From the NCBI GenBank assembly GCA_002787405.1, contig PCWQ01000007.1, positions 31,296 through 95,295 on the forward strand: 64,000 nucleotides of DNA, given 5' to 3'. The notes beneath the pieces are model-generated. The model was not told where the DNA came from. It did no database searches and saw nothing but the letters and a program-made list of their open reading frames with translations. Source of the DNA: Candidatus Komeilibacteria bacterium CG11_big_fil_rev_8_21_14_0_20_36_20. Lineage in GTDB: Bacteria > Patescibacteriota > Patescibacteriia > UBA1558 > GWA2-36-10. The translations under genes and the position numbers were made by a program. Positions 943-28,864 of the stretch are shown in pieces. Position 1 is the first letter of the stretch, and the number at the start of each line of letters is the position of its first letter.

Positions 943-1369
943 AAATATCAACTATTTTCCAGATTTCTTCTGGATATAAAATATAAACTTTATTTTGCCC
1001 TACTTTAATATACTTCTTGAAATATACCTGAGATTTATCAGTTAAAACTCCCTTAACAGTCACTGTTTCACCTCCTTTTGTAGCCAATAAAGCATAAGTA
1101 TCATTTTGAAAGTCAAAGAGTAGACATTGCTTATCTTCCTGACTCTCTTTGATTTTATTTTTGGGAAAGACTTTCTGTAATATTTTAAATGTATTCAAGA
1201 CCGTCACTATTCTACCTTTATTATAAATCAAGCCAACAATATTAATATTAACCTTTGGTATTGGAGTAATATTGCCACCGTCGATAAATTGAGTACCTGG
1301 CAAAAGCGGCAAAGCCCATAGCTTTTGCTCGATCATGAATAAAACAAATTTTTCTGATTTAACAGCCAT
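935..1369 (-). CDS. cheW: CheW-like coupling protein
   Basis: A 144-aa ORF with a CheW-domain-like sequence and size, positioned between the MCP and CheA genes. Confidence 0.75.
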   Translation of the reverse strand: MAVKSEKFVLFMIEQKLWALPLLPGTQFIDGGNITPIPKVNINIVGLIYNKGRIVTVLNTFKILQKVFPKNKIKESQEDKQCLLFDFQNDTYALLATKGGETVTVKGVLTDKSQVYFKKYIKVGQNKVYILYPEEIWKIVDIYD

Positions 1370-1370
1370 T

Positions 1371-2519: not shown

Positions 2520-2624
2520 AATTATAACTTTTTATCTCCTAAATTATAACATATTCTAGCCCTAAAAACAAAATCGTCTAGCCAAAATAGACTAGAACGA
2601 CTGGACGAGATAATTAGAATAAAA

Positions 2625-4739
2625 CTATCTTATAAAACTATTAATCATCTCCGCCAAAGCAGACTGATTATTCTCCTCTAATTGCCTGGCAAATTGTTGG
2701 AGATGTTGATACTCATCATCCGTCAAGGCCTGCTTTCTTTCTGAAAAATTAATTTCCCTAATCTTATTTAGATTCTCCTCCATACCTGACAAATCGCCAC
2801 TAATCAAATAAACCTGGAACAGATTCCAATAGACCGGTTTAGCCCAAGGAGCTAGATTTTTTAATTCTATAGCGTTCTCCTCAGCCGCCTGAATATCACC
2901 GAAGATTAAATAGGTTCTAGTTAATTGTAAATAAATATCCGGCCTCTGGGGAGCTTGATTTTTTAATTTATTTAATAAATCAAGATTTTTTAAAATAAAC
3001 TCCTGATCAATTGTCGCAAAATCACTATAAAAACTGGACAGCATCATGTTTAACCTAACGTCGTAGGGATGCCTTTTACTCTCCTCTTCTAGATAACCCT
3101 CCACCAAGACAAACAACTTAGTTTTACTTTGATCATCAAGATAAGGATTAGTGGATACGTTTAGCATCATTTGCAATAAAACCTCCACTTTCTCTTTCTC
3201 GCCTAAACTACTTAAAGTAAAGGACCGCTGCCACTCCTCCAGGGCTTGATCAAAACTTTGCTGATCCCGAGCTAAGCTAATATTTCTAAATGATTTAGTT
3301 AATAATAAATTGCTTCCCAGTGGATTCCAGAAAAAAGTTAAAGAAAAACTAATGATAATCATTAAACTCAGTAAAGCATGAACTCCGTGTCCTCTTTTAA
3401 AAGGAATATGATCTCTCTTTTGTTGCTTAACACCGACCATAAATAAAAAAGAAAGGATCAGATACAAGATAAGGTTAGTATTTAAATTATCAAAAATAAA
3501 AAAATCATGAAACAGAAAACTTATCAGGAAAGCGATCCAAAAAAAACTAAAAAACCAATCATTATCCTGTTTATATTTTTGATATAAATAAAATATCAAG
3601 AAAACAAACACTGACAGATACAAAAAAAATCCGACAATACCCCCTTGCACCAAATGCTGAACTAAAATATTATGAGGCCGATCAAACCATAATTCCGAAC
3701 TTTCATCACGAAAAATTTCTATGGGAAAATAACCATTAAAAACATAATGAAAATTTTCTTCACCCCAACCCAATAAAGGCCTCTCCTGAACACCTCGCCA
3801 GCTATTACGCCAGATAGTTAAACGGGATTGAGTGGTAATATCATTTAAAGAAATGTGGGTTAATTTATAAGCCAGATGAATTCTGTCTACCCAGGCGCTA
3901 TCTTTTTGTTGCCATAATAATCCCAACAGTAAAAAGCTAGCCAACAAAATCCCTAGAGCAAAATAATACCCTGCCTTTCTTTCCCTTCTTTTAAACCAAA
4001 GATAGAATATTATTAATAAGAATATAAAAAATGCTAGACCTAAAAATGCCCCTCTAGTTTGAGTGACTATTAAAATAAAAATAAATAAACCGACGCTTAG
4101 AATATACCAAAAATTCAAAAAAGACCAACCTTTTAACCTTAATCTATTAAATAAGAGATAAACTGCCACTACTGTCTGAAGGAACATATATGACCCAACA
4201 TAAGCCGCATTACCTAAAGTGGAAGTTAATCTGCCTCCACCATATGATGGTAAAATAAAATTTAAATTAAATTGCTGCCCTAAAGCAACTAAAGCGACCA
4301 GCCAGGCGGCAATCAGAGAAATATTGAGAAGCTGCCGCCAAGATTTAGTGCTATTAACAACTCCCAACAAAACAAAAATATACATTAACAAATGATACCA
4401 ATTCACCAATCCATCCATTCTTTCAAAATTGCTCCAGAAACTAAAAGAAAAATTCATTCCCAGAAGACTGGAAACTGTTAACCCGATGACAAATAAAAAT
4501 ATAAAAATAAAAGCTTTATTAAATTTTGGACGAAAACTTTTGTTAGTTAGAATTAAATAAAAATAAAGACCAAAAATAATATCTATAATTAAACGAAAAA
4601 ATAAATTTCTTGGAACGATGAAAGGAAAATAAAAACCATCAATCACCACTAAAGGCAAAAATAGAACCAATAACAGCCCGATTTTAATTAATAATAATAG
4701 GCAATTATCCAGTCTGTTTAATTGAGATAAAACACGCAT
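2625..4739 (-). CDS. O-antigen ligase-like (Wzy_C domain) polytopic membrane protein with C-terminal TPR repeats; candidate O-oligosaccharyltransferase or polymerase
   Basis: 704 aa with more than 10 TM helices and a Wzy_C-like core (QTRGAFLGLAFFIF). The C-terminal third is soluble, TPR-like and helical. It is a paralog of 47034..49307. Confidence 0.65.
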   Translation of the reverse strand: MRVLSQLNRLDNCLLLLIKIGLLLVLFLPLVVIDGFYFPFIVPRNLFFRLIIDIIFGLYFYLILTNKSFRPKFNKAFIFIFLFVIGLTVSSLLGMNFSFSFWSNFERMDGLVNWYHLLMYIFVLLGVVNSTKSWRQLLNISLIAAWLVALVALGQQFNLNFILPSYGGGRLTSTLGNAAYVGSYMFLQTVVAVYLLFNRLRLKGWSFLNFWYILSVGLFIFILIVTQTRGAFLGLAFFIFLLIIFYLWFKRRERKAGYYFALGILLASFLLLGLLWQQKDSAWVDRIHLAYKLTHISLNDITTQSRLTIWRNSWRGVQERPLLGWGEENFHYVFNGYFPIEIFRDESSELWFDRPHNILVQHLVQGGIVGFFLYLSVFVFLIFYLYQKYKQDNDWFFSFFWIAFLISFLFHDFFIFDNLNTNLILYLILSFLFMVGVKQQKRDHIPFKRGHGVHALLSLMIIISFSLTFFWNPLGSNLLLTKSFRNISLARDQQSFDQALEEWQRSFTLSSLGEKEKVEVLLQMMLNVSTNPYLDDQSKTKLFVLVEGYLEEESKRHPYDVRLNMMLSSFYSDFATIDQEFILKNLDLLNKLKNQAPQRPDIYLQLTRTYLIFGDIQAAEENAIELKNLAPWAKPVYWNLFQVYLISGDLSGMEENLNKIREINFSERKQALTDDEYQHLQQFARQLEENNQSALAEMINSFIR

Positions 4740-4854
4740 TGTTAATAAATAAAGGCAATAAAAAGATAATCCATAAATAAACTAAATAAATAATAAAAAT
4801 TTGACAGTTAAGGTTATTTATATTATAATATAAAATACTATTTAATTCAAGCAA

Positions 4855-6219
4855 ATGAAAAAAATTACCCTATTTATCATTGACATTGTTTTACTCTATG
4901 CGAGTTTAGCTCTAACTTTATGGCTGCGCTATGGCCAGATCAACAAAGATTTATGGATGAGACATTTCTGGCCTTTTTCTATAATCTTTGCTCTTTGGAT
5001 TGTTGTTTTTTTTATTAATGGCTTATATGAAATACGTAAAGTTAGAAATGATTTTAAATTTTATGGAAATTTAATTCAAAATTTGCTAATCAATGCTCTG
5101 CTAGCCGTCTTAGTTTTTTATGTAATCTTAGGTAACTTCACCACCTTAAAACCGCAAACAGTTTTAGTTGTCCTGTTAATTATTTTTACAATACTTTTCC
5201 TTGTCTGGCGCAGATTATTTTACGAACTTATTTCCAGCGCTACCCTCAGAGACAATCTAGCTATTATCGGGATTAATGAAGGGTCACTACTCTTAGCTGA
5301 AGAAATCATTACTAAACCGCACCTGGGTTATAATTTAAAACTAATCATCAATCCCGATTATTCTTTGATCCCTGAAAAATTTCACATTATCTCTATTAGT
5401 AAAGATATCTCTGATTTAAAAAATCAACTAGTCACCCACAAAATTAACACTGTGGTCAGCGTTAATAACCCGAAATACAGTCCCGAAGTGGCTCGGTATT
5501 TATTTGAAACTATTGATTTAAAAATACAATATCTGAACCTCACCGACTTTTATGAAAAAGTTACTGGAAAAATACTGGTTACTGCTTTGGAGCGCAACTG
5601 GTTTCTAGAAAATATCACCAGAAAAAATAATGAATTATTTAAAGCTACTAAAAGAACCATCGATATAGTTTGCTCTGTTATTTTTGGCTTAATATCATTA
5701 ATTATTATGCCTATCCTCGCTCTATTAATTAAATCAGAATCAAAGGGTCCTTTAATTTATAAACAGGAACGAGTAGGGTTAAACGGCAAAAAAATCACGG
5801 TCTATAAATTTCGTTCTATGGTTCACAATGCAGAAACTACTCAAGAAATCTGGGCCCAAAAAAACGATAATCGGATCACCCGCATAGGCAAATTTATTCG
5901 TAAAACTCGGCTGGATGAAATACCCCAATTTTGGAATATCTTCAGAGGCAATATGAGTTTTGTCGGGCCAAGACCGGAAAGGCCTAAATTTGTAGAGCAA
6001 CTCAAAAAAAAGGTGCCTTTTTATAACGAAAGGCATCTGGTCAAACCTGGCTTAACCGGCTGGGCGCAAATCAATTTCCCCTATGGATCTTCAATTGAAG
6101 ATGCCCATGAAAAACTGCAATATGATCTGTTCTATATAAAAAATCAGTCAATCTCCTTAGATATTTCCATTATTTTAAAAACTATTAACGCTATTTTTAG
6201 TATTAATCTAGGCAGATAA
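4855..6219 (+). CDS. polyprenyl-phosphate hexose-1-phosphate transferase (WbaP/WcaJ-like initiating sugar transferase, Bac_transf domain)
   Basis: 454 aa with N-terminal TM helices. The C-terminal region reads IDIVCSVIFGLISLIIMPILALLIKSESKGPLIYKQERVGLNGKKITVYKFRSM...PRPERP, which is typical of this family. Confidence 0.85.
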   Translation: MKKITLFIIDIVLLYASLALTLWLRYGQINKDLWMRHFWPFSIIFALWIVVFFINGLYEIRKVRNDFKFYGNLIQNLLINALLAVLVFYVILGNFTTLKPQTVLVVLLIIFTILFLVWRRLFYELISSATLRDNLAIIGINEGSLLLAEEIITKPHLGYNLKLIINPDYSLIPEKFHIISISKDISDLKNQLVTHKINTVVSVNNPKYSPEVARYLFETIDLKIQYLNLTDFYEKVTGKILVTALERNWFLENITRKNNELFKATKRTIDIVCSVIFGLISLIIMPILALLIKSESKGPLIYKQERVGLNGKKITVYKFRSMVHNAETTQEIWAQKNDNRITRIGKFIRKTRLDEIPQFWNIFRGNMSFVGPRPERPKFVEQLKKKVPFYNERHLVKPGLTGWAQINFPYGSSIEDAHEKLQYDLFYIKNQSISLDISIILKTINAIFSINLGR

Positions 6220-6232
6220 AACTTTTAACCCT

Positions 6233-7216
6233 ATGAAAAATAAAAAATCAAACCTAAAAAATAAGACTATTCTTGTAACCGGCAGCGCCGGTTTCATTGG
6301 TTTTCATTTATCTAAGAGACTTTTAGAAGAAGGTGTCAAAATAATCGGACTAGACAATTTCAATAATTATTATGATCCCCAACTGAAAGAATCTCGAAAT
6401 AAAATCCTGGAAAAGTTTGATAACTTTAAGTTATATAGAGGCGACCTAACTGATTTAAATTTTGTCAAGAAAATTTTTCAAGAAAATAAAATTGATAAGG
6501 TTTGCCATCTAGCCGCTCAAGCTGGGGTAAGATACAGCTTAATTAACCCCTACGCCTATATTCAATCCAACTTAGTCGGCTTTCATCATATTATTGACGA
6601 AGCTAAAAATGCCGGCATCAAAGACTTCATCTATGCTTCCAGTAGTTCTGTTTACGGTAATAATAAAAAGGTTCCTTTTTCTGTAGATGATAGGATTGAT
6701 CATCCAATATCATTATACGCAGCCACTAAAAAATCTAATGAACTCCTAGCTCATACTTACCATCATCTTTATGACATGAATTGCACCGGTCTACGATTTT
6801 TTACAGTCTATGGCCCTTATGGCCGTCCAGATATGGCTTTATTTCTATTTACCAAAGCTATTCTAGAGAATCAACCAATTAAAGTATTTAACTTCGGCAA
6901 AATGGAAAGAGACTTTACTTATATTGATGATATTATTGATGGGGTTGTTTCCAGCTTAGAATATTCTTATCCCTATGAAATATTCAATCTAGGCAATAAT
7001 CAACCGGTCAAACTTGAAGATTTCATCCAACACATTGAAAATGAATTAAACCAAAAAGCCCAAAAAGAATATTTACCGATCCAACCCGGTGACGTGCCTA
7101 AAACTTTTGCGGATATAACCAGCAGCAAAGAAAAACTTAACTATCAACCCACTACACCTATAAAAAAAGGAATTAATAAATTTATGAATTGGTATAAAGA
7201 CTATTATAAAATATAA
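6233..7216 (+). CDS. NAD-dependent nucleotide-sugar epimerase (UDP-glucuronate 4-epimerase / WbpP-like, SDR family)
   Basis: The Rossmann motif reads TGSAGFIGFHLSKRL. A YASSSSVYG serine and a YAATKKSNE YxxxK motif are present. The N-terminal sequence matches UDP-glucuronate 4-epimerases. Confidence 0.8.
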   Translation: MKNKKSNLKNKTILVTGSAGFIGFHLSKRLLEEGVKIIGLDNFNNYYDPQLKESRNKILEKFDNFKLYRGDLTDLNFVKKIFQENKIDKVCHLAAQAGVRYSLINPYAYIQSNLVGFHHIIDEAKNAGIKDFIYASSSSVYGNNKKVPFSVDDRIDHPISLYAATKKSNELLAHTYHHLYDMNCTGLRFFTVYGPYGRPDMALFLFTKAILENQPIKVFNFGKMERDFTYIDDIIDGVVSSLEYSYPYEIFNLGNNQPVKLEDFIQHIENELNQKAQKEYLPIQPGDVPKTFADITSSKEKLNYQPTTPIKKGINKFMNWYKDYYKI

Positions 7217-7291
7217 TGTTTCAAAATTTAAGGCATAAGAGTTATTTTAATTGCAAATAAGCTTATAACTCCCAATAATTGGCCTATATAA

Positions 7292-8047
7292 CTATACAAT
7301 TATTTTGATAATAATACCTTTACCAAATAATTTAGGGAATATTTTATTTAAAATCGGAAGCCCTTCGTAAATTATAATCTTGTCCAATTTTAAATTTAAA
7401 GCCTTGCTCCACCATCTAACATCCTCTGCTGTCCAAAAACGCAAATGCTCTCCAGGATGAGCCATCCACTGCACAGGAAAACGGCCGCATAACAACCTCA
7501 AACGATGAATATAGTAACCTGTGTTGGGTATAGAGAAAATCAGTGCTTTCCTAGCTTTACTTTTTATATTTAAAACGAATTCCTCTGAGTTAGACATGTG
7601 TTCAATAATCTCTAACCCCAATATATAATCCACCTCCGGCAAATTCTTTAAATTATCAAAATTATTGATATCCATAGTTATTGTTTTGATACCTTCCTGT
7701 TTAGCTTTAACTAAAATTTCACTACTAATATCAACACCAATTCCATTTATACTCATCTTCTCCTTTAAATATTTTAAGATTCCACCATCTCCACAACCTA
7801 TATCTAGAACTTCTGAATTTGGCTCTAACATATCTAAAATATATTTTAGCCTTTGTTTTTGCCAACCAGACAAAACAGAAACCGACCCTTTTCTTTTTAA
7901 TTTCCAATATTTATTATAATCAACGGCTGTGCCGTTATTTAAATCACACCTTGGATAATTAAATAATGACGAAAAATCCCGTTTAATTTTGTATAAAAAA
8001 ATTTTAAACATATTATTAGACATATATATTAGTTTTATATAACTCAA
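7292..8047 (-). CDS. class I SAM-dependent methyltransferase (MetW-like)
   Basis: A SAM-binding motif reads LDIGCGDGGILKYL. The C-terminal segment PNTGYYIHRLRLLCGRFPVQWMAHPGEHLRFWT resembles the MetW family. Confidence 0.6.
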   Translation of the reverse strand: MSYIKLIYMSNNMFKIFLYKIKRDFSSLFNYPRCDLNNGTAVDYNKYWKLKRKGSVSVLSGWQKQRLKYILDMLEPNSEVLDIGCGDGGILKYLKEKMSINGIGVDISSEILVKAKQEGIKTITMDINNFDNLKNLPEVDYILGLEIIEHMSNSEEFVLNIKSKARKALIFSIPNTGYYIHRLRLLCGRFPVQWMAHPGEHLRFWTAEDVRWWSKALNLKLDKIIIYEGLPILNKIFPKLFGKGIIIKIIV

Positions 8048-8093
8048 TAATGTCTTTTGCTATATTTTCACTTAATTAATCAACCTATGATTA

Positions 8094-9407
8094 TTAAGAC
8101 AATCTCTCGAAACTAGAATGCACCACTGGCCCTTCTAATAAATCATAAAGTTTATGTGATACAACCGCTTGCTCTAATAAATTACAAACCTTTTCTGCTG
8201 CCTTCACATATAATTTGGCATAATCTTCTGTGAGGCTATAACTAACATATATAGTAGCCGAAGCCAAAACGCCTCTTTTAAGCATTTCTTGAGTAAATAA
8301 GGTACGAATAGCTTGACTATCTTTACCATAATCAAAAAAAAGATGAATCAATGGCGGTAATCCACTAATCTTAAGTTTCAAACCGCTATTTTCAGCTGAT
8401 GTCTTTAATCCTTTTATTATTAAGCGTCCAATTTTATCAAGCTGTTTAGGGACATCTTTGTCTATCATCTTCTTAATGGTCGTTATAGCCGCCATTGGGC
8501 CAACCCTCTCTGTCCAATAAGAACTGCTAATAAATGAAGTTTGAGCCGCTTGCATAACATTCCTATTGCCAATAATAGCCGCCATTGGGAAACCATTGCT
8601 CATTCCCTTAGCAAAAACAGCTATGTCAGGATTTACGTCGTATTTTAGATGAGCACCCCCAACATTAAGACGCCAAGCAATGGTTACTTCATCAAAAATG
8701 AGAACCGCTCCAATTTTATCAGCCAGATTTCTTATTTTTTTTAAAAAATCATCCTCTGGCTCATCATTCCTTAAAGGCTCCATAACAATTGCGCCAATAT
8801 CATTGTTTTTTAAAACAATATCCTCTAACTCCTTTATTTTATTATAGTGAAAAGGGATCGCTGTGCCAGCCAGCCCTCTTGGCACGCCCCTTGGCTCTAA
8901 TCCTGCTAATAAATGCCCATCCAGATGTTTATCGTTAAATAAATTAGCAGCTAAATACCAATCATGCCAACCATGATAGCCACAAAAAGCAATCTTATCT
9001 TTCCCTGAATATGCCCGAGCGATTCTGACAGCTACTGCCATTGCTTCTCCGCCACCTCTGGTATATCTAACCATCTCGGCCCAAGGATGCAATTTACATA
9101 GCAACTTCGCCAATTCTACATCTTCAGGAGAATTGAGTGTACAGATAGAACCTGATCTAATTACTTTTTCTACTGCTTCATTGACATCTGGATCGGCATA
9201 ACCCAATATACAAGCACCGACGCTAGCATAAGTATCAATATATTCATTGCCATCTAAATCCCAAACTTTAACGCCTTCCGCTTTTTTAAAATAAGAAGGC
9301 CAATGTTCTGGCAAAAACATCTCTGAACGTTTTGATAGTAATTGTGTTCCACCTGGAATAATTTTCTTTGCTTCGTTCCATAATAGAACACCTTTTGTTG
9401 ACTTCAT
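8094..9407 (-). CDS. class III aminotransferase (glutamate-1-semialdehyde aminomutase-like)
   Basis: 437 aa. The N-terminus (IIPGGTQLLSKR...KAEGVKVWDLDGNEYIDTYASVGACILGY) matches HemL-type PLP-dependent enzymes. Confidence 0.8.
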   Translation of the reverse strand: MKSTKGVLLWNEAKKIIPGGTQLLSKRSEMFLPEHWPSYFKKAEGVKVWDLDGNEYIDTYASVGACILGYADPDVNEAVEKVIRSGSICTLNSPEDVELAKLLCKLHPWAEMVRYTRGGGEAMAVAVRIARAYSGKDKIAFCGYHGWHDWYLAANLFNDKHLDGHLLAGLEPRGVPRGLAGTAIPFHYNKIKELEDIVLKNNDIGAIVMEPLRNDEPEDDFLKKIRNLADKIGAVLIFDEVTIAWRLNVGGAHLKYDVNPDIAVFAKGMSNGFPMAAIIGNRNVMQAAQTSFISSSYWTERVGPMAAITTIKKMIDKDVPKQLDKIGRLIIKGLKTSAENSGLKLKISGLPPLIHLFFDYGKDSQAIRTLFTQEMLKRGVLASATIYVSYSLTEDYAKLYVKAAEKVCNLLEQAVVSHKLYDLLEGPVVHSSFERLS

Positions 9408-10254
9408 AGCTGTTTGTTTTAAGTATAAAATAATTTTCTAAAAATAAAGCATCTAGCTCAGTATTGTTAAAAAGATTTAATGCCTGCTCAGGATTCTCCA
9501 CAATAGGTTCTCCCCTACCATTCATTGATGTATTCATAACAAGAGGGATCCCTGTAATTTTGTAAAATTCTTTTATTAAATTGTAATATGATTCATTAAC
9601 ATCTTTTTTTACAACTTGTGGTCGCGTTGAATTATCAACATGTAAAGCCGCCGGAATTTTATCTTGCATATTATTTTGTATATATCTAGCAATAATCATA
9701 AAATCGGCACAATTGGGAATATAGCCCTGGAGATATTTATGTTTATATTCATCTAAAATTGATACAGCAAGTGGCCGCCACTGTTCTCTATATTTTATTG
9801 TATTCATTCTTTCTTTGTTTTTCTTTTTTGTTGGGTTTGATAAGATACTTCTGTTCCCTAAAGCTCTTGCACCAGCTTCCATTTTGCCATTAAACCAACC
9901 AATAACTTTATCCTCAGCGATTAACTTTGCTGCTTGCTTATATGGTTCTTTAAGATATTCAAATCTTAGACCCTTAGATTTTAGCATTTTTTCTATATAA
10001 CTATTACTATATTTAGTGCCATAATATAGATGGCGCATCTCTTCAAAATCATTCCTCCCAGTTTTTTCAACATATTTCAACATTGCTGAACCAATCATAC
10101 TACCATTATCTCCAGCTAAAGGCTGGATAAAAATATCTTGAATCAACCCTGACTCTAAGATTTTACTATTCATAACGCAGTTCATCGCCACGCCACCAGC
10201 TAGACATAAATTATTACTTTTAAATTTCCTTTTCCCTATTTTTATTAGAATCAA
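9286..10254 (-). CDS. carbamoyltransferase (NodU/CmcH family), C-terminal part of a gene split by a frameshift
   Basis: Contains NLCLAGGVAMNCVMN, typical of O-carbamoyltransferases. Reading on in the +1 frame from the upstream ORF across the T8 run at 10323..10330 gives an uninterrupted sequence. Confidence 0.75.
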   Translation of the reverse strand: MILIKIGKRKFKSNNLCLAGGVAMNCVMNSKILESGLIQDIFIQPLAGDNGSMIGSAMLKYVEKTGRNDFEEMRHLYYGTKYSNSYIEKMLKSKGLRFEYLKEPYKQAAKLIAEDKVIGWFNGKMEAGARALGNRSILSNPTKKKNKERMNTIKYREQWRPLAVSILDEYKHKYLQGYIPNCADFMIIARYIQNNMQDKIPAALHVDNSTRPQVVKKDVNESYYNLIKEFYKITGIPLVMNTSMNGRGEPIVENPEQALNLFNNTELDALFLENYFILKTNSYEVNKRCSIMERSKENYSRWNTITIKTFRDVFARTLAFLF

Positions 10255-10268
10255 TAATACTTCTTCAA

Positions 10269-11090
10269 CTAAATCCTGGACCGCATAAGCAAGATCAACA
10301 TATTTCTTATCAAAATTTTCTCTTTTTTTTCTTCTAAAATATCAATTGCAAATGTAGCTTTAATATAATTGAATCTATCTTTCCAAGACGATGCTAATTT
10401 CTTGTGTCTTATTTGATAACCACTTCTTCTAAGTTTCATTATTTTTTTATCAAATAACTTTTTTATTTTTTTATCATAATTTCCATAAGCAGATAGTCCC
10501 ATAGTTTGACCTTCACCACTTATTGGTTTAAAACCTAGGAATCCTGTTATATCGGTATATATTTCTCCAATCGAATTAGGCCAATCAAATACTTTAATTT
10601 CTTTGAGCTTACCCTCCACTCCTTTAAAAATAACGGAAGATTCTTTTTCGCCAGCTCCATCTACTGTAATAACCAATGATTCATCAAACCCACTCAAATA
10701 GTAAGCTGATGCGGCGTGTGATAAGTGATGATTATAAAATGTAATTGGTGGCATTTTTAAATTACCAAATTTTAATTTAAGTTGATCATATATAATATCT
10801 TTTGCCTCTAATATCACCTCGCTATGTTTTAATCCTTTTTGTTTTACAAAAGGCCATTGTGTGGGTTCAAAAGGAATGGTGATATAATCTATATCAGATA
10901 AAGTTAAATTATTCATATTAAGTGTTATACTAATAGCATTAATAGGAAATTGTCCTTCTGCGTGCTTAACCCTAGTAAATCTTTCCTCTTCTAAAATTGA
11001 TATAATTTTGTTATCTTCCAATAAAATTACCGCCCCATCGTGAGTTCCAAAATAAGGTGGTATGCTTGGTTTAAAAGATAAAATTTTCAT
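10269..11090 (-). CDS. carbamoyltransferase (NodU/CmcH family), N-terminal part of a gene split by a frameshift
   Basis: The N-terminus reads MKILSFKPSIPPYFGTHDGAVILLEDNKIISILEEERFTRVKH, as in the carbamoyltransferase N-terminal domain. With 9286..10254 the total is about 595 aa, a normal size for the family. Confidence 0.75.
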   Translation of the reverse strand: MKILSFKPSIPPYFGTHDGAVILLEDNKIISILEEERFTRVKHAEGQFPINAISITLNMNNLTLSDIDYITIPFEPTQWPFVKQKGLKHSEVILEAKDIIYDQLKLKFGNLKMPPITFYNHHLSHAASAYYLSGFDESLVITVDGAGEKESSVIFKGVEGKLKEIKVFDWPNSIGEIYTDITGFLGFKPISGEGQTMGLSAYGNYDKKIKKLFDKKIMKLRRSGYQIRHKKLASSWKDRFNYIKATFAIDILEEKKEKILIRNMLILLMRSRI

Positions 11091-11106
11091 AATGTTATTT
11101 TAAATT

Positions 11107-11948
11107 ATTAAAATTTATTATATATTTTTTTCTTTCTGCAATAACCATAAAAGTATAGCTTTTTGTATATGTAATCTATTTTCAGATTGATTAAAAATAA
11201 TAGAATTATCGTGATTAATTGCATCACGAGAAATTTCATATCCTATTAACTTTACCATCAGTAAAAAATTCCATATTCATCCAAGTATCTGTATGTATAT
11301 AATTAACATCTTTTAATGCCTCTTGTAAATCTAGTGTTCTAATAACTAACCCAGTTGATTCAGCTTGTTTATTAAGCTTTGCATCAATGCTGCTTTTATC
11401 TGCTTTAGGGGAAACAATTATAAATTGAATGCCTAATTTTACACAGGCTAACATTAAAGTATTTGATACATTATTTTCAATCCCTAACCAAGCTACTCTT
11501 TTAATTTTATCTACCCCTTGGAATGCTCTGCCATAGTTAATATATCACTCAAGGCTTGGGAAGGATGATATTTTTCACTACATCCATCAATAACTGGAAT
11601 TTGATTATGCTTAGCAGCACTCAAGATATCATCTGTATTCACGGCACGAAACATTAAAATATCGCCAAAATTCATCATTGATTTTATTTCATCATTGAAA
11701 TCTGTTATAGAAAACTGAGTTGTTCGTATATCTATAAAAATAGCGTGACCACCTAGTTCGGTCATGGCTGTCTCATAAGACAATCGAGTTCTTGTAGATG
11801 TTTTTTGAAATAACATGAGTAAGGTTTGATTATGTAAATAATCTGGCAAATAATTTTTCTTTCTTTGCTTTTTTAATTTTTGTGCTAAAGTTAATATAGA
11901 TAAAATATCTTCCTTGCTTTGCTCTTTAAGAGAAATTAAATGTCTCAT
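11107..11948 (-). pseudogene. ornithine/aspartate carbamoyltransferase-like gene disrupted by at least two frameshifts
   Basis: STRTR and HPSQ motifs are found in ORF 11511..11948. The polypeptide continues in other frames (KIKRVAWLGIENNVSNT...VSP, then ISRDAINHDNSIIFNQSENRLHIQKAILLWLL). The HCLP active-site motif is replaced by EFFT. Confidence 0.65.
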
Positions 11949-11980
11949 AATCCTTTAAAGTTATTAAAATTGTTGATTGA

Positions 11981-12976
11981 TTATCGTGCCCCTTTTATAG
12001 CAATCACCACCATATGAGATGATAAACCATTATCTGCTAACCACTTCTGAAAAGAATCTGAGTATTTTTCCCATTCATCAATTAAGACCCGCTTGAAAAA
12101 TGCTTGTTTATCAAGTGAAATAACCCCCTCTCTTACTTTGTTTCTAACTAACTCAGCATCTAATTTACCAGGAGTTTTAATCTCCAAAACTTCAAAACCG
12201 TTGGTTTCTAATAATAAAGAAATGGATTCTGGATGAAAATAATTCAAATGATCTGGAGCAGTTGTATTATCAGAATGCTCTCCTAAAACTAATAAATCAA
12301 AACCTTTAATATTTGGGGTTGTTAAAAATAATAATCCACCGTCATTTAATTTATCTGATATGCTCTTAAGATACTCAATTGGATTAAACACATGCTCTAT
12401 GGACTCAATACTTGTCGCCACATTAACTTTATTAATATTCACATTTTCAATAAAACCCTCTACGACCTGCAAACCTTTCTGACGACAAGACTCTGCTGGA
12501 CTTGGGTCTGGCTCAACAGCAATTACTTGTTTAAATTTTCCTGTCTTTTTTATCTGCTCACAAAAAGTGCCACAACCAGCCCCAACATCCATGAATGATT
12601 CAGTAGGAATTTTATATTTTTCACAAAATTTAATAATTTCCTTCACCCGTGGCATAATAATATGCTTTATTCTAGCTGCCTCTGATTGAGGATAAACGTT
12701 TTCGTTCCAAAATTTTTCAGCTAAAGAAGTTTTATAATGTTCAAAGACTATTTGCTGCGTCGGTCGAGGATTTACAAAAACTGTTTCGCAAATATTACAT
12801 TGTACAAAAATAAAGCCGTCTCTTTTATAAAAAAAATTGTACTCTTTCTTGCCACAGGCAGGACAATTTATCTCTACAAATTGATCTTTCTTTGACAATA
12901 CCCTATCCTGATCTAATTTGTATAATCTCCTACCCTCGGCACGAAAATTATCCGCCCTGATATCATTTTCCTTCAT
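11981..12976 (-). CDS. SAM-dependent methyltransferase with an N-terminal Cys4 zinc ribbon (sugar C- or O-methyltransferase-like)
   Basis: A zinc-ribbon-like CPACG...CNIC is followed by the MTase motif DVGAGCGTFCEQI. 331 aa. Confidence 0.65.
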   Translation of the reverse strand: MKENDIRADNFRAEGRRLYKLDQDRVLSKKDQFVEINCPACGKKEYNFFYKRDGFIFVQCNICETVFVNPRPTQQIVFEHYKTSLAEKFWNENVYPQSEAARIKHIIMPRVKEIIKFCEKYKIPTESFMDVGAGCGTFCEQIKKTGKFKQVIAVEPDPSPAESCRQKGLQVVEGFIENVNINKVNVATSIESIEHVFNPIEYLKSISDKLNDGGLLFLTTPNIKGFDLLVLGEHSDNTTAPDHLNYFHPESISLLLETNGFEVLEIKTPGKLDAELVRNKVREGVISLDKQAFFKRVLIDEWEKYSDSFQKWLADNGLSSHMVVIAIKGAR

Positions 12977-13001
12977 TACTAATAAATTAATATTTATCGA
13001 G

Positions 13002-14105
13002 CTATTTGATTGGATCTTTCAATATCCACTCCCCTATTTTATTCTTTTTCCACATTGGTCCCCTAAATTTTTCAGCTACATTCCAGAATTTATCTAAAGT
13101 GATACCGATATAATCACAAAACTGTTTGATAAATTTCACGCCACATTTACCATCATATTCCCTAACGAGTTTGACGCCCTCTTCTCTGGTTATTCTACCA
13201 GCCCAGATATCAGCGCAAGCTTCATCGGTGGCAAAACCATAACCAAGTTTCATATGTTTTAACATCTGATTCATAATTCCCGTATCATCATCAAGGGCGT
13301 GATATTTTGTATAACGTCCCAACTCCAAAGCATCATCGGTTCTAATATGTAGACCTCTATTAATGGCAAACATTGCATGCTCATGTGGCGACCATCTCTT
13401 ATAATAGCCAAGATATATCATTTTGACTCCTGATTGTCTTATCTCCTCTTGAGATGGATAATGATAAGGGATTAGATCTTTAGCTGTCACACCATCACAA
13501 AGAAGATGGGATGAGTCACCCGAAAAACCTAAAGTATTTTGTTCATTAATTCTTGATGCATCACCACCATTTTTGTCTTCAGTGTCATCATCTAAAGTCG
13601 TAGTTTCAATATCAAAAATAACTAAGGGAACTTTATACATAATAGCTGCTCTCACCGGCGTTGCATATAAAGCATATTCCGAAGGCTTAACAGGGTTCCC
13701 CCAAGTATAAAAAGCCATTTTAGCCACTTTTTGACAGACCTTAGGATTAGGTCTAAACATAAAACAATCAAAGCCCATTTTTTGTAAATTATTGATATTA
13801 TGTCTGCCTATTTCAGTGATACCGTCAGGAACCATGTTGGCCAGCAGAACATTAAGACCAAGTACATCTCTGGCATAAAGCGCCATATAAGTACTGTCTT
13901 TGCCACCACTCACTCCAACCACACAATCATATTGAGCCCCTTTGTTTTTAGCTTCCTGAGCTATGTCTATAAGCTGTTTCCTCCTTCCCTCCCAGTCTAT
14001 CTTATCCAAGGATTCATAATAACGACAAAAGTTACAAACACCCCTGTCATCGAAATTTATACCTGGCCTTGTTTCAGGTACAACACATTTTGTACAATAC
14101 CTCAT
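13002..14105 (-). CDS. N-acetyl sugar amidotransferase (WbpG/PseA-like PP-loop ATP pyrophosphatase)
   Basis: An N-terminal Cys-rich region (MRYCTKCVVPETRPGINFDDRGVCNFC) and the PP-loop VVGVSGGKDSTYMALYA fit the WbpG/PseA family. Confidence 0.75.
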   Translation of the reverse strand: MRYCTKCVVPETRPGINFDDRGVCNFCRYYESLDKIDWEGRRKQLIDIAQEAKNKGAQYDCVVGVSGGKDSTYMALYARDVLGLNVLLANMVPDGITEIGRHNINNLQKMGFDCFMFRPNPKVCQKVAKMAFYTWGNPVKPSEYALYATPVRAAIMYKVPLVIFDIETTTLDDDTEDKNGGDASRINEQNTLGFSGDSSHLLCDGVTAKDLIPYHYPSQEEIRQSGVKMIYLGYYKRWSPHEHAMFAINRGLHIRTDDALELGRYTKYHALDDDTGIMNQMLKHMKLGYGFATDEACADIWAGRITREEGVKLVREYDGKCGVKFIKQFCDYIGITLDKFWNVAEKFRGPMWKKNKIGEWILKDPIK

Positions 14106-14130
14106 AATTTTATTATTAGTTTATTAATAA

Positions 14131-14985
14131 TTATCTTGATGTTAATTTTCTTTTTTTGAAAAATAAAGCTGTTTTTAACCAACTATAATATCTTAAATAT
14201 GTTATTAATATTAAAAATGGAAGAATGGCGATATCTTTAACAAAACCCGAACTTTTAAATGGTGTAATAAAATCGGTCATAAATGGATGACAATAAGATT
14301 TTAATTTTCTACTAATGCTCCAATTCTTAGCGTATTTCTTATAAAATAAACAGTCGCCACGACCATAACGAATCCAACGATCTATAATTGCTCCTATTGA
14401 AGCAAAACCCTTTTCATAACAAATAGCCTCAGAAATGGCAAATTTATGACCATCTTTAGCCATTCTAGTACAAAGATCTGTATCATCACTATTAGTCATA
14501 AAAGTATCATATCTATACTTTTTTAATACCTCTCTTAGAAAGAGAGTTGGCGTGCCAACTACATTCTTATAACCCGGCTTATATTTTTCTCTGTAAATAT
14601 TCTGAGCCCAACCAAGATAAGAATCTGTTTCACTTAACATTGTTATAGCAGAAACTATCGCACACTTATACTTCTCTAGATACTCTATCATCTTTATTAA
14701 AGATCCCTGGGGCATTATATTGTCAGCGCCAACAAAAACGATGTATTTACATTCGGCTGCATCTAATCCTATGTTTCGTGCATTGCCAAGCCCTTTTCGG
14801 CTATCATTAACAATTTTATCTACAAAAGGTCTGGCTATCTCTGTTGTTTTATCAGTTGAACCAGCGTCGACTAAAATTATTTCTTTAGGATTATTTTCTT
14901 TAACCGAGCTTAAGCATCCTTCTATTATCTCCTCACAATTATACGAACAAACAACCACCGATAGATCTAATAATTCATCTTCCAT
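14131..14985 (-). CDS. family 2 glycosyltransferase
   Basis: A GT-A signature reads LSVVVCSYNCEEII...ILVDAGSTDKT. 284 aa. Confidence 0.75.
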   Translation of the reverse strand: MEDELLDLSVVVCSYNCEEIIEGCLSSVKENNPKEIILVDAGSTDKTTEIARPFVDKIVNDSRKGLGNARNIGLDAAECKYIVFVGADNIMPQGSLIKMIEYLEKYKCAIVSAITMLSETDSYLGWAQNIYREKYKPGYKNVVGTPTLFLREVLKKYRYDTFMTNSDDTDLCTRMAKDGHKFAISEAICYEKGFASIGAIIDRWIRYGRGDCLFYKKYAKNWSISRKLKSYCHPFMTDFITPFKSSGFVKDIAILPFLILITYLRYYSWLKTALFFKKRKLTSR

Positions 14986-14986
14986 A

Positions 14987-16417
14987 TTATCTTTTCATGA
15001 CTAATTTTAAATAATGCATAATATAAATAAAGCTATCTTTAGTGTTTTTCACTTCATATTTTAAATTCCTTCTAATAGATGGCACGTCTTTGATTATTAA
15101 AAAAATTCTATTTGGCGGCAATTTAATCAATAAATTTACTAGCCATTTCAAATTCGGGAAACGAATTAAAAGATAACATAATTTATCTAAATTTATTAAT
15201 TGTCTTATATTATCCTGTTTTATAAGCGAATTATTGCTATCGGCGGTTGAACCAGCATTTTTGTAGGTAATTATATCTTTAAGATAATTATTATCAAGGC
15301 AATAATTCCCTATCTGAGTTTTAGGATAAGGTACCAAGACATTAGAGTTAATATCATCTAAATCAAGCTGCCTACATAAATTTATAGTCTCATAAGCATT
15401 ATCCATAGTTTCTCCTGGCCAGCCAAATATAATATCTGCGCCTATTCTAATTTGATATTTTTTTAACAGTTGACAAGCTGCTATTATTTGCTTATTGCTC
15501 ATGTTACGATTTAATAGCTCTTTTCTTAAAGTTTCATTGCCAGTTTGGATACCAATAACAAGCTTATCGCAACCAGCTTTTTTTAAAAGAGCAATATATT
15601 CTTCACTAATATCTTCAACTCTGGCATAAATTATAAATCCTGGCAATTTTTTTTCTATGTACAATTTCAAAAACTCTCTTACTTGTTCTAATTTTACATT
15701 AAAAGTTGCATCTTGAAACCTAGCCCATTTCAAACCATATTTATCTTTAACATATAATAGCTCCGCTATGAGCTTTTGAGGCGAATATAAGCGAAAATGA
15801 GTCCCGCCTCCATCCCTATAAAATTGATTTATCCAATTAGTATAGCAATAGGAACATCGAAAAGGGCAACCTCGTGATAAAATGAACGGTTTTGTCTCTA
15901 ACTTTCTTAATTTCTCATATTTCTTAAAATAAATATCTCTATCAAAAGAAGGTAAATGTTCTATATTATTAACATATGCTATGGCTGTATTTTTTTCCAC
16001 TTGTCCATTTTTCTTAAACCAAATTCCTGGAATATTGAAAAAATTTTCTTTCTTGTCTAGTCGATTTAAAATTTCTAGACAAGCTAACTCGCCGTCACCC
16101 ACACACATTAAATCTATACAATCCTCATTAACTATTTCCGGAAAAACTAAAGTAAATGCCCCGCCAATTAAAGTTAAAATATCTTTATTTATCTTCTTTA
16201 TCTCTCTCAAAATTGCAAGAACATCTTCCTGCTCTCCGATACATAAACTACAAGCAACTATATCGGGCTTAAAATTCATTACTGATTCGTAAAAACTATC
16301 TTCTTCCTCTAAACAAAAAACATCAACTACATGACCATGCTCCTTCAAAACTGAAGATATGGCCATGACGCCTAAATTTTCTAACAAGATATGCTGAAGA
16401 AAAGCAATTCTGGCCAT
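14987..16417 (-). CDS. cobalamin-binding radical SAM enzyme (class B radical SAM)
   Basis: An N-terminal B12-binding-like domain precedes the radical SAM motif CPFRCSYCY. The start codon overlaps the stop of the upstream paralog. Confidence 0.8.
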   Translation of the reverse strand: MARIAFLQHILLENLGVMAISSVLKEHGHVVDVFCLEEEDSFYESVMNFKPDIVACSLCIGEQEDVLAILREIKKINKDILTLIGGAFTLVFPEIVNEDCIDLMCVGDGELACLEILNRLDKKENFFNIPGIWFKKNGQVEKNTAIAYVNNIEHLPSFDRDIYFKKYEKLRKLETKPFILSRGCPFRCSYCYTNWINQFYRDGGGTHFRLYSPQKLIAELLYVKDKYGLKWARFQDATFNVKLEQVREFLKLYIEKKLPGFIIYARVEDISEEYIALLKKAGCDKLVIGIQTGNETLRKELLNRNMSNKQIIAACQLLKKYQIRIGADIIFGWPGETMDNAYETINLCRQLDLDDINSNVLVPYPKTQIGNYCLDNNYLKDIITYKNAGSTADSNNSLIKQDNIRQLINLDKLCYLLIRFPNLKWLVNLLIKLPPNRIFLIIKDVPSIRRNLKYEVKNTKDSFIYIMHYLKLVMKR

Positions 16418-18150
16418 TAAAGAGCCCCCCCTTCCAACAAATTCAATTCCTTGTTTATATCAATTTTAAAATGCTTAAAATAACTTCTAGAAGTCTCACT
16501 TGTCTTTAATATATCTTGAGCTTTATGCCAATTATCTTTAACCTTTAATAAATCCCCTTTGATTTCATACGCTTTGCCGAGAACATAATAAGCAATCGCA
16601 TGATCTGGTGCTAATTCAATCACTCCTTTAAAATCTCTAATTGCCTGATCTACTCTATCAGAATTTAAATTTCTGGAATTTATAAAATTGACCTCGAGAT
16701 TGGCTAAATAATTTTTTTCCAAAATATATTCTTTAGAAAAATTTGGCCAATCTACATTACTTGTAACCAAGGGATACCCATATCTTATACTATCAGCCAC
16801 AATATATCCTTTCTGGAGACACTCTTCAAATATTCTTGACCCAGGAATTGCTTGATAATTCCTAATTAAAGCCCAATCTAGATCTAAAGATCGAGCAAAC
16901 TCCAAAGTTTCTTCAACTTCTTTTTTAGTTTCAAAATGAAAACCCGAAATAAAAAAACCAATAATATAACCCTTGCCTAATTTTCTTATTCTTCTAACAA
17001 CATTTTTTGATATCTCTAAATTTAACACTTTGCCAATTTCTTTAAGTGTTTTCTGGCTGCCAGATTCAAAAGCAAGATTAAAGATAGCTATGCCACTATC
17101 ATACATCTTTTTTATTATTTCTTCATCTAGAAAATTTACACCTAAACCTCCTCCAACTCCCCAGCGAATATTCAAACCTCTTTTGATTATTTCATCCATA
17201 ATAGCCACAGCTTTTTTGGTGCTAACTGTAAAATTATCATCATTAAAAACTATTGCATTAACACCATATTCCTTAATAAGTAATTCTATCTCATCTACCA
17301 CATTTTTGGAATTACGATAACGTATTGATCTACCCCAAATGTGTTTTGCTGAACAAAAAGAACAAGAATATGGACAGCCTCGAGAAGCAGTCATAATGCC
17401 TATTTTAGCATTGTTACGACCTAAAACACGAAAGAGAAAATTTCTGCTTAAATTTCCATATTCTGAAAAATCATTGGGCATAATATAGTCATCCGGCGAT
17501 ATGTTAGTTCTGTCAGGAAAAGGCAACTCGTCTAAATTTTTGATTAAAAATTTATTTTCTTTAAATATAATATTTTTATCATCTCTATAAGCTATTCCAT
17601 GCAAATTTTCTACTCCTTTTTCTTTATTTAAAAAAAGAATTAAATCCATAAAACAAATCTCACCTTCTCCAATTATTGCATAATCTATATTATTATCTTT
17701 TAAAGCATCTGAATAAGAAATTGTAGGATAACTGCCGCCTATGACAGTGATTATGTCTGGTGATATTTTCTTTATAAGTGTACATGTTTGATGAACAATA
17801 TGTGATGTAGAATGAAACAAAGAACTCACTCCTATAATATCTGGGGAAACTTCTTCTATTTTATCTTTTAATAAACCCCAAGCTGCAGACATATCAACCT
17901 TCCCCTTAGAAATAAAATGCTTCATAGCCATTAAATTAGCATCAAAAATTTCAATCTCTACATCATTAATCTTACTTTGCAGATAAGAAGAAATATAACC
18001 AAGACCCAGTGGTGACTCTGCAAACTGACCACCAGATATTACCGTCTCGTAATTATAAGAATTGGTCTCTATAATAAATGGATTTATTAATAAAATTTTC
18101 TTGACTCTAGGCATAATTTTTATATAGTTTTTTTGATTTCCAGACAGCAT
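16417..18150 (-). CDS. cobalamin-binding radical SAM enzyme with a C-terminal TPR-like extension
   Basis: A B12-binding-like N-terminal domain precedes CPYSCSFCS. The C-terminal roughly 100 aa are TPR-like. Confidence 0.8.
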   Translation of the reverse strand: MLSGNQKNYIKIMPRVKKILLINPFIIETNSYNYETVISGGQFAESPLGLGYISSYLQSKINDVEIEIFDANLMAMKHFISKGKVDMSAAWGLLKDKIEEVSPDIIGVSSLFHSTSHIVHQTCTLIKKISPDIITVIGGSYPTISYSDALKDNNIDYAIIGEGEICFMDLILFLNKEKGVENLHGIAYRDDKNIIFKENKFLIKNLDELPFPDRTNISPDDYIMPNDFSEYGNLSRNFLFRVLGRNNAKIGIMTASRGCPYSCSFCSAKHIWGRSIRYRNSKNVVDEIELLIKEYGVNAIVFNDDNFTVSTKKAVAIMDEIIKRGLNIRWGVGGGLGVNFLDEEIIKKMYDSGIAIFNLAFESGSQKTLKEIGKVLNLEISKNVVRRIRKLGKGYIIGFFISGFHFETKKEVEETLEFARSLDLDWALIRNYQAIPGSRIFEECLQKGYIVADSIRYGYPLVTSNVDWPNFSKEYILEKNYLANLEVNFINSRNLNSDRVDQAIRDFKGVIELAPDHAIAYYVLGKAYEIKGDLLKVKDNWHKAQDILKTSETSRSYFKHFKIDINKELNLLEGGAL

Positions 18151-18914: not shown

Positions 18915-18915
18915 A

Positions 18916-21710: not shown

Positions 21711-21716
21711 ATTTAA

Positions 21717-22310: not shown

Positions 22311-22325
22311 AATTATTTTAATTAT

Positions 22326-24367: not shown

Positions 24368-24414
24368 AAATTTAAAATTATAATTTATTATTATTTTATT
24401 AAAATTTAAGATTA

Positions 24415-25836: not shown

Positions 25837-25841
25837 ACAAA

Positions 25842-27623: not shown

Positions 27624-27644
27624 TGATAATTATAAAATATTTGA

Positions 27645-28818: not shown

Positions 28819-28864
28819 TCTTATTCCAAATATAGTTTTTTACTTCATCATCATTAAAAAAATT

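Follow-up and report, generated by a model that had tools for sequence, protein, structure and literature searches.

A carbamoyltransferase gene in an uncultured Candidatus Komeilibacteria bacterium is interrupted by the loss of one base at or beside an A-run in its lysine codons. With a probability of about 0.72, we read this as a real deletion, fixed in the sampled population, that splits the gene and has recently inactivated it. A recent inactivating mutation was one of several explanations offered by an earlier, sequence-only reading of this DNA, and it is the one that the data support, the run being constant at eight A residues (A8) across assemblies. The gene belongs to a very large nonulosonic-acid and surface-glycan biosynthesis island of this small-genome, groundwater-type organism, and in all likelihood it is a young pseudogene of the ordinary sort, rather than the product of a sequencing error or an on/off switch.

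The split gene and its repair

Coordinates refer to the window, that is, the whole 64-kb stretch of DNA that was analysed. The features that matter to the argument are these:

10331..11090, minus strand: 5' portion of the carbamoyltransferase gene, read in its original frame (codons 1 to ~253) and coding for the greater part of the Kae1/ASKHA-like N-domain, with H121, H125 and D144
10323..10330, minus strand: T8 on the plus strand and A8 on the coding strand, one base short; read in frame 0, this is the slippery heptamer A_AAA_AAA with a G after it
10269..10322, minus strand: out-of-frame tail of the 5' open reading frame, EKILIRNMLILLMRSRI and then a stop, included in the 273-aa product
9418..10322, minus strand: 3' part in the -1 frame, with what is left of the N-domain (A268, Q272, D328) and all of the YrdC-like C-domain
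9286..9417, minus strand: atypical C-terminal extension of 43 codons and a stop, beyond the end of homologues and overlapping the next gene
11118..11948, minus strand: adjacent ornithine-carbamoyltransferase (OTCase) pseudogene with a frameshift and a deletion, and no intact two-domain frame
28807..28818, minus strand: G12 tract (C12 on the plus strand), intergenic, 79 nt upstream of an HD-domain gene (28018..28728), its length differing between assemblies

The minus-strand open reading frames 10269..11090 and 9286..10254 are two parts of one TobZ/NodU/CmcH-type carbamoyltransferase. No single uninterrupted frame covers both of its domains, and the break lies at 10323..10330. The N-terminal (0-frame) product meets a stop at 10269 after 273 aa, while the C-terminal frame has a stop just upstream of the A8 run and is open only from about 10341; the change of frame must therefore fall within the ~70 nt that hold the run. 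One base inserted there yields a single carbamoyltransferase of 601 aa. The sequence-only reading had taken the two abutting frames for halves of one enzyme, and the coordinates, the family assignment and the colinearity with homologues all agree with it; its placement of the frame change in the T8 tract is likewise borne out, both by the frame limits and by a gapless alignment to homologues. It was also right that a single protein reads through, although the length it gave, about 595 aa, falls short of the 601 aa found.

The repaired protein matches Pfam Carbam_trans_N (PF02543) over residues 17-337 (profile 10-346 of 346, E 1.6e-57), in a match that runs unbroken across the junction, and Carbam_trans_C (PF16861, YrdC-like) over residues 388-558 (profile 1-170 of 170, E 3.9e-61). 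Residues 16-558 match PDB 9s2t (E 4e-71), TobZ 3VEN/3VER (E about 1e-69) and GdmN 7VYJ (E 3e-65). By these sequence matches the repaired protein is a TobZ/NodU/CmcH-type O-carbamoyltransferase; the NodU equivalog model (NCBIfam NF041651) gives it 166 bits where the curated cut-off is 1000, so it is a member of the family and not NodU proper. Residues H121, H125, D144 and D328 align to H120, H124, D143 and D344 of the TobZ PDB chain (native 114, 118, 137 and 338, with a 6-residue tag subtracted), positions that serve as metal ligands in the TobZ structure. Every one of the 61 positions with a conservation of at least 95% across 120 homologues is intact (61/61), and both frames are open over 1.8 kb. 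Such a combination of intact positions and open frames would fit a very recent lesion and, equally, a gene still under selection.

The nearest intact, orthologue-like genes are P0002 (locus L021) and P0001 (locus L022), which encode proteins of 563-564 aa with 65% identity to the repaired protein and, in contrast to the gene here, are both in frame at the K-K-R codons. No relative closer than 65% identity was found in the homology and representative-genome searches, and none was near enough for a dN/dS or frameshift-conservation test; the representative genome contigs, among which the source genome does not figure, gave only relatives of at most 36% identity when scanned with the repaired protein. 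Locus L021 is partly syntenic, with an epimerase, NeuB, DUF218, a 222-aa open reading frame, a cytidylyltransferase, GT2, the carbamoyltransferase and a further open reading frame (113 aa called, at the contig end) that we take to be the N-terminus of a B12-radical-SAM protein. Against intact homologues of 557-564 aa the junction is gapless, reading LEEKKRENFD here and LEEKKREKFN in P0002, and on this alignment the colinearity is far beyond chance.

At the site of the run, the DNA of the closest homologue reads GAA GAA AAA AAA CGA GAA, and the homologue codons stay in frame with A8 followed by CGA in L021 and with A7 in L022. We infer that the mutation was a deletion from an intact ancestor. 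The lost base may have been an A of an ancestral A9 or, equally, the C of a CGA codon directly 3' of A8; an ancestral GAA GAA AAA AAA AGA (A9), or the same stretch ending in AAA CGA, would then have become the present GAAG-A8-GAG. Only A9 (601 aa) or A6 (600 aa) restores the frame. The earlier expectation that either A7 or A9 would give back an intact reading frame thus holds for A9, while the A7 variant stops after 259 aa.

The 3' end of the gene is unusual as well. The frame continues ~40 codons past the stop position of homologues: the tail beyond the last conserved column is 54 aa long, while in homologues its median length is 13 and only 2 of the 120 reach 40 or more. This extension overlaps the start of the next gene, an aminotransferase, by 122 nt, and the aminotransferase start at 9407 is backed by NCBIfam alignments that begin at residues 2-9. 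In P0002 and P0001, by comparison, the stop comes 8-9 residues after the last conserved block, and L021 has a 4-nt ATGA overlap with its next gene. The normal carbamoyltransferase stop has probably been lost or shifted. Where the aminotransferase starts there is an ATGA whose TGA lies in another frame than the extension, and a second frameshift would be a plausible, though unproven, origin of the late stop, the tails being too diverged to align.

Decay in the adjoining gene

The OTCase gene alongside is a clear pseudogene that bears two independent lesions. One is a frameshift at a G4 (C4 on the plus strand at 11514..11517); the other, near 11232..11256, is the loss of about 38 residues at positions about 86-123 of the Pfam OTCace profile, the HCLP region. 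The carbamoyl-P N-domain is intact (profile 1-148 of 148), and the match to the second, Asp/Orn-binding domain, divided among three frames, is limited to positions 4-85 and 124-157 of a profile of 157. NCBIfam OTCase models reach at most 227 bits, short of the cut-off of 306, and gene calling breaks the gene up in the same way in every public assembly. The one-base deletion in the carbamoyltransferase sits in a decaying stretch, next to a gene with a frameshift and a ~38-residue deletion of its own.

It is possible that the OTCase served as a local source of carbamoyl phosphate. A role as conserved partner of this carbamoyltransferase clade was considered and rejected, since none of four homologue neighbourhoods (0/4) has an OTCase; the P0002 and P0001 loci, which differ from the present one in this respect, have no such neighbour. 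A functional link between the two genes can accordingly be proposed for this locus only.

Recurrence and rival explanations

Exact copies of the 273-aa frameshift product turn up in 46 blocks of the protein collection (24 contigs read), their sources being JGI 3300005237, ENA ERZ27293414, NCBI GCA_002788435.1 and Logan SRR6240784, and any contig that encodes this product must carry the frameshift. The identical truncated protein is deposited under three NCBI MAG protein accessions, from three separate MAGs. In all six contigs retrieved (6/6; JGI, ENA, NCBI and Logan) the run is A8: loci L017-L020 match the window base for base along 11-21 kb (100% identity), and two more low-coverage SPAdes-style contigs differ from it by one SNP each. 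The A8 contigs bear MEGAHIT-style (k141_), SPAdes-style (NODE_) and other names and come from at least six different samples. The frameshift is therefore fixed across the assemblies, a fixation that holds for a single lineage only, as all of them derive from one nearly clonal population.

An exact look-up of the repaired 601-aa sequence in a collection of 15 billion proteins, which covers consensus-level alleles only, found no record of it. This look-up was relied on in place of the homology search, which failed to list the two half-proteins encoded here even though the collection contains them (self and near-identical matches were apparently excluded) and was for that reason set aside as evidence against an intact near-identical allele. 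Variant P0129 gave no record on look-up. Scans of a metagenome collection with an A6-A12 pattern and with a fixed flank found no match for either, so that collection is without this organism and a survey of tract length there is impossible.

The window holds 22 other A8/T8 runs, none at the junction of two long same-strand frames, which argues against a systematic homopolymer artefact. A/T runs of nine or more are missing from it, against about 14 expected. The idea that A/T runs had been artificially capped at eight (23 runs of 8, none longer) was rejected, since the 7-to-8 run ratio of 0.35 follows the trend with no pile-up at 8, independent assemblies agree, and the other A8/T8 runs lie off frame junctions. 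The G12 tract at 28807..28818, which is not part of the carbamoyltransferase gene, served as an internal control; its heterogeneity is visible in the same assembly set, and the comparison thus has power for length variation. At the A-run there is no tract-length polymorphism in the six retrieved contigs.

Homopolymers are a classic place for indel errors, and a homopolymer site in a gene that is otherwise perfect invites the view that A8 is a miscall or assembly error and that the true genome carries an intact A9 gene. This explanation, also raised by the sequence-only reading, is contradicted by the 46 blocks with the 273-aa product and by the same A8 in 6/6 contigs from four sources, several contig-name styles and at least six samples. 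The identical truncated protein in three separate NCBI MAGs and the position of the 22 other A8/T8 runs speak against it too, and the adjacent OTCase remnant represents real decay, including a deletion that is impossible as a homopolymer error. Sequencing or assembly error is largely refuted and retains hardly any probability. Surface-glycan modification genes with homopolymers are, on the other hand, typical targets of phase variation, and the A-run could be a contingency tract that sets carbamoylation ON (A9/A6) or OFF (A8) by replication slippage, the samples being OFF. The lesion does lie at a homopolymer inside a gene of this class, the gene is intact apart from the frameshift, and the G12 tract of the same island varies in length between assemblies. 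Yet no ON allele is present among the retrieved contigs (all A8) or in the 46 blocks, the 15-billion-protein collection lacks the in-frame protein, and the same set of assemblies does reveal G-tract heterogeneity; moreover, the window has 22 other runs just as long as this A8 that leave long frames intact. Phase variation of glycan carbamoylation is thus unsupported and must be thought quite improbable, and the C12 tract once cited as its context is intergenic, 18.5 kb away and without bearing on the carbamoyltransferase gene.

What a real deletion would do to the enzyme can be read from its domain architecture. The frameshift truncates the Kae1-like domain after residue 255, leaving H121, H125 and D144 on one fragment and D328, with the YrdC-like domain, on the other. 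In the 3' frame, translation could begin no earlier than a TTG at 10254, so residues 256-278, with the conserved A268 and Q272, cannot be made separately. Given this truncation, the separation of the ligand-aligned residues and the want of a start for residues 256-278, the gene is most likely non-functional, and the glycan of the strain is presumably no longer carbamoylated. The lesion would be young, since every highly conserved position is still intact.

Two ways have been considered in which activity might survive. The two activities of the family reside in separable domains, and YrdC/TsaC and Kae1/TsaD are separate proteins in t6A synthesis; the N- and C-fragments might likewise be translated separately and then reassembled into a functional two-piece enzyme, and weak NCBIfam TsaD/Kae1 matches at residues 240-338 are in keeping with this. 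The break, however, falls inside the Kae1-like domain (17-337) and not at a domain boundary, residues 256-278 are encoded upstream of the first 3'-frame start codon, and the residues aligned with the TobZ metal ligands are divided three to one between the fragments, all of which makes a two-piece enzyme highly implausible. Alternatively, the frameshift might be tolerated because a little full-length, active carbamoyltransferase is still made by slippage on A8, either through an A added by RNA polymerase or through a -1 slip of the ribosome on A_AAA_AAA_G; the gene would then be a "pseudo-pseudogene", or a programmed device for low expression. The heptamer sits in frame 0, and shifting by -1 there, or adding an A, produces EEKKRENF, colinear with homologues; the 61 highly conserved positions are all retained, and the lack of A/T runs of nine or more suggests that this genome is under real selection from slippage. 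There is also a precedent in human apoB, where an A8 run with a one-base deletion gives about a tenth of full-length product by transcriptional slippage; the same paper suggests that some bacterial IS elements exploit 8A runs and puts the selection threshold on runs at nine nucleotides (Baranov et al. 2005, PMC1088944). Against rescue, there is no stimulatory RNA structure downstream, where 60 and 100 nt are less stable than shuffles (z +1.1 and +2.3), and no Shine-Dalgarno-like (GGAGG-like) motif upstream in the sequence. Nor is the frameshift conserved, the nearest homologues (65% identity) being in frame, and the OTCase neighbour has decayed and the carbamoyltransferase stop is displaced. 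As the 22 other A8/T8 runs mark no frame junctions, slippage at 8-base runs is presumably low, and rescue by slippage is on the whole unlikely.

Significance and likeness to known systems

In practice the finding is of use for annotation: the two "hypothetical protein / carbamoyltransferase domain" entries in public Komeilibacteria MAGs represent one disrupted gene, just as the three small OTCase open reading frames alongside represent one pseudogene. Together they point to ongoing gene decay within a very large surface-glycan island of a small-genome bacterium, and the strain is predicted to have a glycan without the carbamoyl group that its relatives may carry. The finding would gain greater importance only if slippage rescue or switching were demonstrated. 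Rescue, if true, would make this the first glycan-modification gene from a candidate-phyla-radiation bacterium with a documented "rescued frameshift", and would fit a genome purged of every A/T run of nine or more. As leads, the length-variable G tract and the absence of such A/T runs arguably hold more interest than the frameshift.

Campylobacter, Neisseria and Haemophilus have phase-variable glycan-modification genes with homopolymer tracts. The present gene resembles these contingency genes in having a homopolymer in a surface-glycan gene, with a variable G tract elsewhere in the island, but differs in that the run is A8 rather than a long G/C run and that neither length polymorphism nor an ON allele is seen. 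Endosymbionts, for their part, carry poly(A)-tract frameshift pseudogenes with partial rescue by transcriptional slippage. The likeness to poly(A) frameshift pseudogenes, in endosymbionts and as treated in PMC1088944, consists in a one-base deficit at an A-run in an AT-rich genome (32% GC), a frame that an added A repairs, and a window without runs of nine or more, in keeping with the nine-nucleotide threshold (PMC1088944). The run here is only 8, however, and no other gene in the window has the same pattern.

With TobZ, the NovN-type enzymes (decarbamoylnovobiocin carbamoyltransferase) and GdmN, the repaired protein shares both family domains at full length. It differs from these characterised enzymes in its low identity to them and in the interrupted frame of its gene, and its genomic setting is a nonulosonic-acid/glycan island rather than an antibiotic or Nod-factor cluster.

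The split carbamoyltransferase gene

The carbamoyltransferase gene is genuinely split, and its parts all lie on the minus strand:

10269..11090, minus strand, carbamoyltransferase 5' ORF (273 aa)
9286..10254, minus strand, carbamoyltransferase 3' ORF (322 aa counted from TTG)
10323..10330, minus strand, A8 run on the coding strand, read from sequence
9286..9417, minus strand, atypical C-terminal extension of the carbamoyltransferase frame, with no stop at the family's usual end

Frame inspection showed that the 3' frame does not open before about 10341 and that the 5' frame ends at 10269, so the frame change must fall within 70 nt holding the A8 run. The coding strand there reads ...ATT TTA GAA GAA AAA AAA GAG..., and one added base yields a 601-aa protein, whose residue numbering is used here. 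In Pfam searches of this repaired protein, Carbam_trans_N spans the junction as a single match (residues 17-337, profile 10-346 of 346) and Carbam_trans_C is matched at full length (residues 388-558). The junction is also gap-free against intact homologues of 557-564 aa, with FAIDILEE-KKRENFDKKYVDLAY in the window facing FSLDFLEE-KKREKFNQKYKNLAY in P0002, the nearest of them. The sequence-only reading had taken the two ORFs as parts of one carbamoyltransferase, which these matches bear out; it had also allowed A7 as a frame-restoring length, which fails, since only A9 (601 aa) or A6 (600 aa) regains the frame, and A7 and A10 lead to stops after 259 and 260 aa. At the run codons the closest homologue has GAA GAA AAA AAA CGA GAA and another has GAG AAA AAA AGA; the base missing from the window is an A from an ancestral A9 or else the C of a CGA codon that directly followed the A8.

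Apart from the frameshift the gene is undamaged: aligned with 120 homologues, the repaired protein agrees at 61 of the 61 columns that are at least 95% conserved. Such a state means either that the lesion arose very recently or that selection has continued. The 3' end is less regular. Past the last conserved column the window protein has 54 residues versus a median of 13, a tail of at least 40 occurring in only 2 of the 120 homologues, and homologues end 2-9 residues past the last conserved block. Lacking a stop where the family normally ends, the frame runs 122 nt into the following gene, a class-III aminotransferase; the long start of the latter at 9407 is backed by NCBIfam alignments from residues 2-9. 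An ATGA start/stop overlap, as at the P0002 locus, is present at 9404..9407 with its TGA out of the carbamoyltransferase frame. There are thus hints of a possible second small indel near the 3' end.

Across window positions 1..64000, A/T runs reach a length of 8 in 23 cases but never exceed it, although a steady length-to-length ratio of about 0.38 predicts about 14 longer ones. Truncation of longer runs at 8 was considered and rejected, there being no pile-up at that length. The sharp limit fits the report that selection against A/T runs typically begins at nine nucleotides (PMC1088944, Baranov et al.).

Gene decay and the glycan island

A second broken gene adjoins the first:

11118..11948, minus strand, ornithine-carbamoyltransferase (OTCase) pseudogene, immediately upstream of the carbamoyltransferase and within the glycan island

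Its carbamoyl-P N-domain is intact, yet the remnant is frameshifted at a G4 (C4 on the plus strand at 11514..11517) and lacks Pfam OTCace profile positions about 86-123 (about 38, including the HCLP region), near 11232..11256. This deletion cannot be a homopolymer artefact and recurs in all assemblies, which means that genuine decay is in progress in the stretch with the two genes; public annotation splits the remnant into two or three small ORFs. Since no OTCase neighbour was found beside the examined carbamoyltransferase homologues (P0002 and more distant ones), we infer only tentatively that OTCase might have been a functionally linked, local source of carbamoyl phosphate.

The glycan island, at about 2.6-49 kb of the window, encodes two Wzy_C proteins, a Bac_transf initiating transferase, PseB-like and NeuB nonulosonic-acid genes, a cytidylyltransferase/UDP-Glc-dehydrogenase fusion, a WbuX amidotransferase, an asparagine-synthase-like gene, about nine glycosyltransferases, four B12-radical-SAM enzymes and several methyltransferases. 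The partly syntenic P0002 cluster comprises an epimerase, NeuB, DUF218, a 222-aa ORF, a cytidylyltransferase, a GT2, the carbamoyltransferase and a truncated ORF that we read as a B12-radical-SAM N-terminus; more distant homologues sit in flagellin-glycosylation or polysaccharide clusters.

Several other features were observed. Four genes for B12-binding radical SAM proteins, arranged in the island as two tandem pairs (14987..18150 and 39057..41941, minus strand), suggest unusual C-methylation or similar sugar chemistry, and a G7 run (C7 on the plus strand, 16425..16431) lies at the junction of the first pair. Also within the island, an RtcB-like gene of the RNA ligase family (35553..36875, minus) has glycosyltransferase and CDP-alcohol phosphatidyltransferase genes around it. 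Inside the island or at its edge, an IS200-like Y1 transposase gene (46339..46908, minus) separates glycosyltransferase genes from the second Wzy_C gene (47034..49307). A 1267-aa ORF at 50191..53994 (minus) has a GC content of about 42%, markedly above the background of about 32%, and matches nothing in Pfam at E<=1e-5; it could encode a large surface or repeat protein, or represent foreign DNA. At the window start lies an MCP-signalling-like gene (1371..2519, minus; 31 bits, under the Pfam cut-off), and in matching public contigs a CheA-like gene (Hpt, HATPase_c) extends into the window's first 950 bases; both are unexpected in a genome labelled as a candidate-phyla-radiation bacterium.

Origin of the frameshift

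In the public assembly collection, 46 indexed blocks contain the 273-aa product exactly, out-of-frame tail included, and 24 contigs carrying it were read. Carriers include JGI 3300005237, ENA ERZ27293414, NCBI GCA_002788435.1 (PFRE01000024.1) and Logan SRR6240784, and the product also has three NCBI MAG protein accessions, each under the name Candidatus Komeilibacteria bacterium. The four loci retrieved match window 269..21090 at 100% identity, and each has A8; the run is likewise A8 in two low-coverage SPAdes-style contigs that come from other ENA samples and depart from the window by one SNP each. An exact look-up among about 15 billion proteins did not find the repaired 601-aa sequence. A representative-genome scan with it returned distant relatives only, and two metagenome_contigs scans gave no match; homology search apparently suppresses self-hits and is not taken as evidence for absence of an intact allele.

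A second homopolymer served as an internal control:

28807..28818, minus strand, G12 tract (C12 on the plus strand), intergenic

It lies 79 nt upstream of an HD-domain gene (28018..28728, minus) and just downstream of a GT4 gene (28865..29968, minus). Public assemblies of the otherwise identical strain give it lengths of 12, 13, 16 and at least 20, as well as at least 10 at contig ends; GCA_002788435.1 has an N-gap in its place, and several contigs terminate at this very point. These differences could be true hypervariability (e.g. a promoter-spacing switch) or Illumina failure on poly-G.

The best-supported reading (probability about 0.7) is that one base was recently deleted and that the deletion is fixed in a nearly clonal population: loss of a base at or next to the A8 run would break the carbamoyltransferase frame, and glycan carbamoylation would be lost. 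The sequence-only reading had offered recent inactivation beside homopolymer error and phase variation, and inactivation is favoured by an A8 fixed across assemblies and by the decayed neighbour. A sequencing or assembly error is very unlikely, given the recurrent A8 in all retrieved contigs, the absent repaired protein and the other 22 A8/T8 runs of the window, none of which lies at a junction of two long same-strand frames, so that there is no general homopolymer problem. Phase variation of glycan carbamoylation at the run is improbable and goes unsupported, because assemblies that reveal length heterogeneity or instability at the G12 tract show none at the A-run, a comparison of consensus assemblies in which minority alleles below consensus level would need reads.

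Rescue during expression, through -1 ribosomal slippage on the A8 heptamer or an extra A in the mRNA, is an unlikely alternative to recent inactivation, even though GA-A_AAA_AAA-G provides a correctly framed -1 slippery heptamer and either event would yield EEKKRENF. According to Baranov et al. (PMC1088944), rescue of about 10% is still possible with an A8 run, as in human apoB, and some IS elements may use such runs. However, the sequence downstream of the A8 has less structure than its shuffled versions, an SD-like element is missing upstream, and relatives do not share the frameshift, the homologues being in frame at the run codons. Nor do the window's other A8/T8 runs mark frame breaks, which argues that slippage at eight is low in this organism. 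That two separately made pieces form a functional enzyme is hard to credit: the break falls inside the Kae1-like domain, and translation in the 3' frame could begin no earlier than TTG 10254, by which point conserved A268 and Q272 have already been passed. Such a split would also part H121, H125 and D144 from D328; these align with TobZ positions 114, 118, 137 and 338, which we take to be metal ligands.

Comparison with known carbamoyltransferases

The repaired protein belongs to the PF02543/PF16861 carbamoyltransferase family, although the window gene lacks the intact frame of its members. A score of 166 bits, where the cut-off is 1000, sets it apart from NodU itself, and its closest solved structures are decarbamoylnovobiocin carbamoyltransferase (9s2t), TobZ (3VEN series) and GdmN. 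The gene is best seen as a frameshift pseudogene of the ordinary, homopolymer-associated sort, useful mainly as an annotation fix for public MAGs and as a flag for decay in a glycan island.
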